A stretch of 64,000 nucleotides of DNA from Octopus vulgaris (taxonomy: Eukaryota): the NCBI GenBank assembly GCA_951406725.2, contig OX597834.1:13082001-13146000 (forward strand). Reading direction: 5' to 3'. This document shows, piece by piece, positions 2,704 to 53,279 of the stretch. The notes under the pieces were generated by a model. The model worked only from the letters and a program-made list of their open reading frames with translations, was not told the DNA's origin and made no database searches. Each line of letters starts with the position of its first letter. Position 1 is the first letter of the stretch. A program made the position numbers and the translations under genes.

Positions 2704-3108
2704 GGTGGCGAGCTGGCAGAAACCTTAGCACGCCGGGTGAAATGAATTTTGTCTGCCGTTACGTTCTGTCGTGAAATTCCGCCGAGGTAGACTTTGTCTT
2801 TCATCCTTTCGATGTCGATAAATTAAGTACCAGTTGCGCACTGGCGTCGATGTAATCGACTTAATCCCCTTTTCTGTCCTTGTTTGTCCTCTCTCTGATT
2901 AGTCCCTTCTGGGTAGTAAAGAAATATGTATTTTATCTGCCGTTACGTTCTGAGGTCAAATTCCGCCGAGGTAGACTTTATCTTTCATCCTTTCGGTGTC
3001 GATAAATTAAGTACCAGTTACGCACTGGCGTCGATGTAATCGACTTAATCCCTTTGTCTGTCCTTGTTTGTCCTCTCTATGTTTAGCCCCTTGTGGGCAA
3101 TAAAGAAG
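2704..3108 (+). mobile_element. SINE family B, head-to-tail dimer
   Basis: Head ggtggcgagctggcagaaaccttagc, then the body (aattccgccgaggtagactttg..tttcatcctttcg..gtcgataaattaagtaccag) twice, each copy ending in aaagaa. Confidence 0.88.
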
Positions 3109-11729: not shown

Positions 11730-11965
11730 GAACAATTGCAGCGTAGAAGGTGTTTATTATATTCACTTCAATATTTAAATTTAATTTGACACATTTTTCA
11801 CATTTAAATAAAATTTGACAAATTAAATTTAAATGTTGAAGTGAATCTAACGGTTTTTGTGTGCTTCTTAAATGGCTTATAAACACCTACCACGCTGCAA
11901 TTGTTTTCGTTGAAGCACTCGATCTCAGATCAAGTCACTCGCTATGCAATTACATCTCCGTAACA
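11730..11965 (+). mobile_element. Family J fold-back copy (PLE-type; ribozyme core lost at the fold-back point)
   Basis: Inverted segments 11731-11757/11879-11905 and 11761-11788/11819-11846. The sense part is homologous to 14381-14526. Confidence 0.75.
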
Positions 11966-13729: not shown

Positions 13730-13884
13730 GCTCTTCTGTTTTCCTTTGTTTTTTCTGTGTCCCTTTCTGTAGAAGAGCGTAGGCTCGAAACGTAAAATAC
13801 ATTTTCTATTCCTGAGCGTTATACTAATACATCTGTTTGTTTTGTACACCACCAGTCTTCGTCTTTTGTTTTTTCATAAACTCT

Positions 13885-13941: not shown

Positions 13942-14144
13942 TATAGATATGAGAGAGAGAGAGAGAGAATACAAGAATGGTAAGAGATATCTAAATATAA
14001 TGATATAATAAATTTAGATGTCAGAATAGTTACACACACATATATATAATTGTAAATGGATGACAGCATCAATTTAATAGCCATTATTAAGGAGTCACAT
14101 TAAATAATCATTTATATGGACATACATATAGAATATATATATAC

Positions 14145-14215
<71 letters not shown>

Positions 14216-14233
14216 AATATATATATATATATA

Positions 14234-14300
<67 letters not shown>

Positions 14301-14318
14301 ATATATATATATATATAT

Positions 14319-14523
14319 AACAACAATGCAGCACGGACTTTGTCAGTGAACAGGTCGCGGATTTTAGCGACGAAAATATTTTGACAAATTAAACTTAAAT
14401 GTTGGAGTGAATCGAACGGCTTTTGTGTGTTTCTTAAATGGCTTATAAACACCTCCCACGCTGCAATTGTTTTTCGTTTCAGCACACGATCTCAGATCAA
14501 ATTACTATGCGAGTACATCTCCG

Positions 14524-14526
<3 letters not shown>
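14319..14526 (+). mobile_element. PLE-type mini-element family J between two (TA)n tracts
   Basis: Homologous to 11815-11965, carries a hammerhead motif, and has TA repeats on both sides. Confidence 0.8.
14339..14388 (+). ncRNA. Minimal hammerhead motif with G3:C8 swapped core (GUGAACA)
   Basis: tttgtca GTGAACA g gtcgc-ggatttta-gcgac GAAA atat TT tgacaaa. Stem I is 7 bp, stem II is 5 bp, and stem III is the palindrome aatatt. Confidence 0.75.
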
Positions 14527-14561
<35 letters not shown>

Positions 14562-34253: not shown

Positions 34254-34291
34254 CAGTTGAAAAGGTCTCAAAATGACCGAAACCGGTACTG
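34254..34291 (+). ncRNA. Minimal hammerhead motif with U3:A8 core (UUGAAAA)
   Basis: cag TTGAAAA ggtc-tcaaaat-gacc GAAA ccgg TA ctg. Stem III is the palindrome accggt. Confidence 0.72.
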
Positions 34292-34377
34292 AAATGTTCT
34301 TTATAAAATTATTTTAGGATTTTCTATTTTGACTTGTTTTTTCATATATATCAACTCGTGTGTTGCTTCTCACCCTT

Positions 34378-52648: not shown

Positions 52649-53279
52649 TATTTCTTTATTGCCCACACGGGGTTAAACATAGAGGAGACAAACAAGAACA
52701 GACAAACGGATTAAGTCGATTACATCCACCCCAGTGCGTAACGGGTACTTAATTTATCGACCCCGAAAGGATGAAAGGCAAAGTCGAACTCGGCAGAATT
52801 TGAACTCAGAACGTAACGGCAGACGAAAGACCTATTTCTTTACTACCCACAAGGGGCTAAACACAGAGAGGACAAACAAGGACAGACAAAGGGATTGAGT
52901 CGATGACATCGACACCAGTGCGTAACTGGTATTTAATTTATCGACCCTGAAAGGATGAAAGGCAAGGTCGACCTCGGCGGAATTTGAACTCAGAACACAA
53001 AGACAGACGAAATACCTATTTCTTTATTACCCACAAGGGGTTAAACATAGATGGGACAAACATAGGTATTAAGTCGATTACATCGACCCCAGTGCGTAAC
53101 TGGTACTTAATTTATCGGCCCCGAAAGGATGAAAGGCAAAGTCGACCTGGGCGGAATTAGAACTCACAACGTAACGGCAGCCGAAATACTGCGAAGCATT
53201 TCGCCCGACGTCCTAACGATTCTGCCAGCTCGCCGCCATACCGCTTAGCATTTCGCGCGGCGTGCCAACTCGCCGCCTT
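52649..53279 (-). mobile_element. SINE family B trimer (184-bp period) with a partly duplicated head
   Basis: The tail motif tatttcttt occurs at 52649, 52833 and 53017. There is one head at about 53190-53237 and a second head fragment running to 53279. Confidence 0.9.

Follow-up and report, generated by a model that had tools for sequence, protein, structure and literature searches.

Introduction

Metazoan Penelope-like elements (PLEs) carry minimal hammerhead ribozymes in their pLTRs, and the text of Cervera and de la Pena (2014, PMC4209133) describes most copies as single and truncated. The hammerheads presented there have an additional nucleotide separating positions 9 and 10.1, a G10.1:C11.1 pair and a small palindromic helix III; U17 is common among them, a Crassostrea example carries a UUU cleavage triplet (Fig. 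S3 of that work), and they are slow even as dimers. Positions 3 and 8 of the core form a tertiary pair that the text of PMC3884650 places in the active conformation. Among the 56 representatives given in PMC4209133, this pair is C3:G8 in 53, U3:A8 in two and U3-G8 in one. The U3:A8 form, in which the same tertiary pair is altered in compensatory fashion, is likewise found in the natural hammerheads described in the text of Perreault 2011 (PMC3088659) and in S. mansoni Cercyon (PMC4209133).

The reversed pair, G3:C8, is described for engineered hammerheads carrying C3G/G8C, including that of anole Poseidon (Frangieh 2024, PMC11167929; PMC8495972; PMC3884650). According to the text of PMC11167929, either single change (C3G or G8C) abolishes cleavage by the anole Penelope hammerhead and the double change partly restores it, with protein needed, and PMC8495972 gives a 10^5-fold loss of activity for G8C alone.

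Here we analyse a 64,000-nucleotide stretch of the Octopus vulgaris genome (the window), in which a motif at 14339-14388 shares with the PLE hammerheads of PMC4209133 the pLTR position, the preponderance of single, truncated copies, the extra nucleotide, the G10.1:C11.1 pair, the small palindromic helix III, U17 and the UUU triplet. It differs from them, as far as the text of that source goes, in having a longer helix I (7 bp) and in having G3:C8. The descriptors reported there used C3-G8 and U3-A8 cores, so that a G3:C8 motif could not be returned. The two letters are those of the engineered hammerheads; unlike those laboratory mutants, the octopus pair occurs naturally and is fixed across thousands of copies. 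It also contrasts with U3:A8, which is reached by two transitions via a U-G wobble, whereas G3:C8 needs two transversions via a non-pairing state and places a pyrimidine at position 8. The element that carries the motif resembles Neptune/Nematis EN+ PLEs (Craig 2021, PMC8557442), for which the text describes a reverse transcriptase (RT) followed by a C-terminal GIY-YIG domain, a CX3CX2C linker, (TA)n targets, inverted truncated partners and an optional tail.

Results

A minimal hammerhead with a G3:C8 core

A minimal type I hammerhead motif can be read directly from the window letters at 14339-14388, on the plus strand like all its parts. The 5' strand of helix I (14339-14345) pairs over 7 bp with the 3' strand (14382-14388), as seen in both sequence and fold. 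Between them lie the core strand G3 U4 G5 A6 A7 C8 A9 (14346-14352, with G3 at 14346 and C8 at 14351), an extra G at 14353, unpaired, that separates A9 from position 10.1, helix II with its 8-nt loop (14354-14371), G12 A13 A14 (14372-14374), the palindromic helix III AAUAUU (14375-14380, with A15.1 at 14375 and U16.1 at 14380) and U17 (14381). Helix II is formed by five pairs, 14354-14358 with 14367-14371, and includes G10.1:C11.1; sister families likewise have a G at the extra position. Cleavage is predicted after 14381, as deduced from the NUH rule. The arrangement is that of a hammerhead: helices I and II flank the core in a three-way junction whose ends lie in helix I, and G12 A13 A14, A15.1:U16.1, G10.1:C11.1 and an NUH triplet are all present. 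Relative to the literal consensus C3 U4 G5 A6 N7 G8 A9, the motif departs at positions 3 and 8 and matches at the other five, and positions 3 and 8 retain Watson-Crick complementarity as G:C.

Folding forms helices I and II (z -2.42, with 1 of 200 shuffles equally stable), and their pair probabilities are 0.70-1.0 in a 117-nt context. AATATTT is present in 73 of 75 young copies, and the self-duplex of the helix III palindrome is very weak at only -0.2 kcal/mol. With positions 3, 7, 8 and 9 left open, a descriptor finds two matches in the window, compared with a chance rate of 0.095 matches per window in 200 shuffled windows; a match with helix I of at least 7 bp and helix II of at least 5 bp occurs in 0 of those 200. 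Rfam hammerhead models give no match for the element at E up to 10, and on the window the Rfam matches listed (150 of 264) include only microsatellite-driven ones below the gathering score. A canonical C3:G8 sister (L265) has no Rfam hammerhead match either; therefore, the miss is not caused by the swap.

These results bear on several claims of the original prediction. Its core, GUGAACA in place of CUGANGA, is borne out by the letters at 14346-14352, and its topology (7-bp helix I, 5-bp helix II, palindromic helix III) agrees with sequence and fold, except that the unpaired G at 14353 was overlooked. The expectation that CUGANGA searches miss the element is right for the descriptor, which cannot match, and does not extend to the Rfam miss. 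A UUU triplet was called unusual, which does not hold given the Crassostrea PLE hammerhead with UUU and the frequency of U17 in the text of PMC4209133. The rescue of activity by compensatory double mutants, also assumed, is partial in the texts of PMC11167929 and PMC8495972, where some activity returns.

Three further places in the window (13764-13798 and 33371 on the plus strand, 44741 on the minus strand) belong to another abundant repeat, which is minimal-hammerhead-like with the core CUGUNGA (U6). Its fetched copies have C3:G8 in 16/16 and U6 in 14/16, with N7 variable, and it is possibly a second family-wide core variant. At 34254-34293 (plus strand), a hammerhead-like motif with U3:A8 and a 4-bp helix II has ACCGGU as its palindrome and lies some 85 nt ahead of a (TA)n run; the chance rate for such a match is 0.095 per window, and fetched loci elsewhere include comparable U3:A8 motifs. 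A common interspersed repeat is arranged in tandem, with a period of 184 bp, at 2742-3107 and 52649-53186 (2 and 3 copies).

The motif lies in an EN+ Penelope-like element

The window copy is a solo end-piece of 200 bp (14326-14525, plus strand), which corresponds to the 3' part of the pLTR and holds the leader, the hammerhead and the first ~30 codons of the ORF. It lies between (TA)n target sequences detected with Tandem Repeats Finder at 14122-14319 upstream and 14526-14558 downstream. Inspection of the genome reveals copies 97-98% identical to it throughout, with near-identical ones on many contigs of the 2.8-Gb assembly, in a family with thousands of copies. The retrozyme layout of short head-to-tail hammerhead units was not found here, the window copy being a single unit between (TA)n runs.

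The full unit is seen at one locus (L410), where two direct repeats of 1,118 bp, 98.4% identical, flank an ORF in a pLTR-ORF-pLTR arrangement. The segment 14326-14525 matches both repeats, and each repeat carries the G3:C8 motif, the two motifs being 4,261 bp apart; the window copy has a single one. The start of the RT-endonuclease ORF lies at 14438-14525 (plus strand), is frameshifted in the window copy and includes an optional "tail" between two preferred 3' ends. The ATG corresponding to 14438 runs on into the ORF of L410 and aligns with the N-terminus of a sister family; as this start is 92 nt after G3, the end of the window copy represents the first 30 codons. Twelve of 30 loci extend upstream into more of the element, several reaching the end of the GIY-YIG endonuclease ORF. 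RT motifs and a CX3CX2C linker are seen in longer loci, and inverted truncated partners in five of seven. By eye, YVDD, YIGET and a CX3CX2C linker can be recognised in a 1,025-aa open frame (L408). Pfam gives no match for the protein of this family, and for the sister protein only RVT_1, below the cut-off. Homologous proteins number 136; one named as Octopus vulgaris (54% identical) matches this genome at 100%, which marks the host as an octopus. The layout of the element is that of an EN+ PLE of the Neptune/Nematis type; the protein tree covers relatives other than named proteins of either clade.

An older family copy, 88% identical, is found in the window at 11731-11962 with two inverted arms, both of which start near the 3' strand of helix I and are without the catalytic core. 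Family copies at two other loci, L247 and L019 (here in the far flank), have as neighbours pieces of other Penelope-like elements whose RT or GIY-YIG sequences are different.

G3:C8 is the state of the whole family

Genome-wide matches to an exact 22-mer pattern number 6,024, of which 5,534 have G3 with C8, 324 have G3 with another base at 8 and 166 have another base at 3, compared with 0 in the controls. C3:G8 was not found among the 100 listed of the 166 matches without G3. In a middle-aged subfamily, which differs in loop II, a pattern left free over the entire core strand has 2,865 matches, and 90 of the first 100 carry G3 and C8 (hand count). For an old subfamily, a pattern free at 3 and 8 returns G:C in 45 of 68 matches (hand count), the remainder being A-C (9), G-U (5), C-C (2), G-A (2), U:A (2) and three other singles, with C:G in 0 of 68. 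That is to say, no C3:G8 copy occurs among the listed matches of the young, middle-aged or old subfamily.

Over 215 columns, the majority sequence of the old subfamily and the young family are 68% identical. Changes between them affect N7, loop II and helix III, as well as an outer pair of helix I, which is U-A in the window copy and G-C in the old subfamily; positions 3 and 8 are unchanged, and loop II sequence varies among subfamilies in general. G5, A6, G12, A13, A14 and A15.1:U16.1 are common to all three subfamilies, as is the absence of G at 17. Four further runs, which bear the labels of four organisms, show no variant at 14346 or 14351 at a frequency of 5% or more; cover at these sites is lower than further 3'. 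Sameness among the young copies reflects recent amplification rather than selection.

Among copies with G3 and a base other than C at 8, hand counts give about 42 with G8 and 40 with U8 in the 100 listed of 324. G8 is commoner than expected for a transversion, an excess that is unexplained. The G3-G8 copies were considered as a hidden intermediate subfamily and this was rejected for now, as 11 of them have no clear diagnostic change relative to 52 others.

The original prediction had proposed that G3:C8 is natural, to be confirmed by GTGANCA in the family consensus, and that the proposal would fall if copies did not keep G3 and C8 together. The genome-wide counts uphold it and show that the swap is no error of a single copy: G3 goes with C8 in the great majority of pattern matches, and both letters are kept in three subfamilies. 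Its attribution to a Penelope-like element is sound as well, given the RT and GIY-YIG ORF and the pLTR-ORF-pLTR unit. The literature on PLE hammerhead variants, to which it also pointed, yields G3:C8 only in engineered form within the full texts searched.

C3:G8 persists in sister families with a shared scaffold

The scaffold of the motif recurs in sister families, where the pair is C3:G8. A pattern with a pyrimidine at 3 and a purine at 8 on the same helix II ends has 3,244 matches versus 22 in the control, a figure that includes places counted more than once and of which most listed are C3:G8. One C3:G8 locus (L261) shares inner helix I pairs (GTCA/TGAC) and the helix II 5' strand with the old G3:C8 subfamily. 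In the sister family to which protein P0030 belongs, the motif carries C3:G8 together with C9, and the proteins of that family and those of the G3:C8 family are sisters with support 99/99 in a 15-row tree, for which 13 of 36 metagenome loci were used, those under 250 aligned residues being dropped. Every sister family seen in at least two copies has a Watson-Crick pair at 3:8.

In the 36 metagenome PLE loci, five motifs are found with a descriptor blind at 3 and 8; each lies 3' of the ORF and has a Watson-Crick pair at 3:8 (three U:A, two C:G). By comparison, 30 shuffled sets yield three matches (0.1 per set), none paired. In shuffles of the window, 8 of 19 chance matches are paired at 3:8, so lone weak U:A matches need caution. 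Ten hand-picked rows are complementary at 3:8 in every case (G-C in five, C-G in four, U-A in one), and three of the five helix II pairs change on both sides; since the rows are interrelated, this covariation is descriptive. Helix II pair 10.4:11.4, for example, is G-C in the window copy and A-U or G-U in the sisters. With relatives that have C:G or U:A at 3:8, the pair covaries. Judged from sisters and outgroups, G3:C8 appears to be the derived state, and the swap is one event within this lineage.

U17 was considered as a co-adaptation to G3 that avoids G3:C17, which is plausible. C17 occurs in two C3:G8 sister groups; U17 occurs alongside C3:G8 in the young sister family and in L261, and the co-adaptation is thus not established.

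The young sister family (L133:4646, L251) has C9 in 51 free-descriptor matches and A9 in its older copies, and its intact 1,311-aa ORFs stand in head-to-tail tandems of about 4.6 kb. Two other loci (L221:1501-1545 and L279:1501-1530) have the same helix II ends with U3:A8 or U3-G8. The 3' tail of L221 is closer to the sister families, and the two motifs possibly represent a further family between the two states.

Copy ends point to uncut RNA templates

Copy ends were compared in a sample of 141, part of which was picked by best match and excludes ends inside the query. At the 5' side, 77 of the 141 have their end 12-16 nt before helix I, and 29 extend for more than 60 nt. Of the 35 copies starting at AGATG without upstream element, 21 have a non-templated G in front (p = 1e-5, against 13% G in the flanks of those copies). 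At the 3' side, 25 of 79 ends lie 31-35 nt and 51 of 79 lie 88-95 nt after the ATG. A splice acceptor behind the 5' hot spot was rejected: a pyrimidine tract and AG are present, yet the short copies share no upstream exon. A capped RNA start fits better and is unproven.

The element RNA would thus be capped and start about 13-15 nt before helix I, with reverse transcription proceeding from two internal sites within the ORF start to the RNA 5' end. From an uncut template this would yield solo copies of 145-200 bp such as 14326-14525. Solo copies contain the whole motif, which indicates that their templates were uncut. Reverse transcription from internal sites has been shown in vitro for the anole element in the text of PMC11167929.

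The first 100 of 584 matches gave 99 distinct copies, in which ends at the predicted cleavage site were inspected. After 31 with internal indels or deletions were set aside, 68 copies truncated between 14379 and 14393 remained, and their 5' ends are not piled up at the predicted cut: eight start at 14382, compared with 10 at 14386 and nine at 14393. Five of the eight can be explained by homology to an inverted arm (by eye). In the folding model, a G3-U17 wobble on top of helix I has a probability of 0.67; it is comparable to the C3-G17 trap that the text of PMC3884650 describes.

Discussion

The motif is real: a known ribozyme, in an element of a known kind, has a natural variant that is long-lived and shared by the whole family. 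We take the motif to be a minimal type I PLE hammerhead fixed for G3:C8, which likely cuts slowly after U17, probably only as a dimer or assisted by the protein of the element. Its predicted self-cleavage is fairly probable, given that every other core position is standard and that the engineered double change partly restores cleavage in the anole Penelope hammerhead. A fuller reading, that of a naturally evolved, active G3:C8 hammerhead that arose by two transversions through an inactive intermediate and was kept through several amplification waves, seems to us evenly poised. G3:C8 would derive from C3:G8 via a non-pairing intermediate, which would be tolerated because cleavage is unnecessary in each transposition round, and selection on the active fold would then hold the new pair. 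Counting against a cutting motif are the 5' ends, which form no peak at the predicted cut, the G3-U17 wobble, the very weak helix III and the merely partial rescue in engineered mutants, as well as C9 in the young sister family and U6 in another repeat, which indicate that such cores tolerate damaging changes.

The alternative that survives best, a possible though doubtful one, is that a descendant of a hammerhead has lost useful cleavage and survives in the RNA leader as a structural signal whose shape includes the 3:8 pair; the signal may serve in protein binding or in the control of translation or reverse transcription. The flat profile of 5' ends around the predicted cut site, the origin of integrated copies from uncut RNA and the competing G3-U17 wobble are consistent with it, as are the anole observations in the text of PMC11167929 that catalytic mutants still insert in vitro and that no RNA-seq reads end at the cut site of that element. 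The anole motif nevertheless cuts in vitro despite the absent RNA-seq ends. Also arguing for a cutting hammerhead are the place of the 3:8 pair in the active conformation (PMC3884650) and the conservation of G5, A6, G12, A13, A14, A15.1:U16.1 and non-G17 across three subfamilies.

It is improbable that one successful source element acquired, by chance and without selection, two mutations that restored complementarity and that nothing has maintained since. A single origin and the free decay of copies after insertion would suit such a history, and a random second change re-pairs 3:8 in about one case of three. However, G3:C8 has been kept by subfamilies that differ by about 30% and in which N7, loop II and helix III have changed, and 3:8 is Watson-Crick in five of five metagenome motifs and in every sister family of at least two copies.

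An accidental likeness to a hammerhead, with the conserved letters acting as DNA promoter elements of the pLTR, would suit the location just downstream of the inferred start site, the lack of an Rfam hammerhead match and the letters GGTCG at 14353-14357, which we take to resemble a downstream promoter element, but covariation, with compensatory changes in helix II and at 3:8, brings it close to refuted and leaves it very improbable, as do canonical CUGANGA sisters on the same scaffold, one of which Rfam misses too. The location is, moreover, where the text of PMC4209133 describes PLE hammerheads.

As a third natural state of the tertiary core pair of the hammerhead, G3:C8 joins C:G and U:A, and of the three it is the least accessible through single changes. 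Engineered swaps are already known to work in part; hence, the finding leaves the mechanism of the ribozyme unchanged. Matched C3:G8 sisters on nearly the same scaffold provide natural pairs that can be assayed side by side, and these could address whether selection acts on cutting in Penelope hammerheads. Any descriptor that requires CUGANGA gives too low a count of such motifs. If the G3:C8 motif is active, searches of the CUGANGA type would miss whole families, such that elements reported to be without a hammerhead may carry some, and Penelope hammerheads would be dispensable in any single round yet selected for catalysis in the long term.
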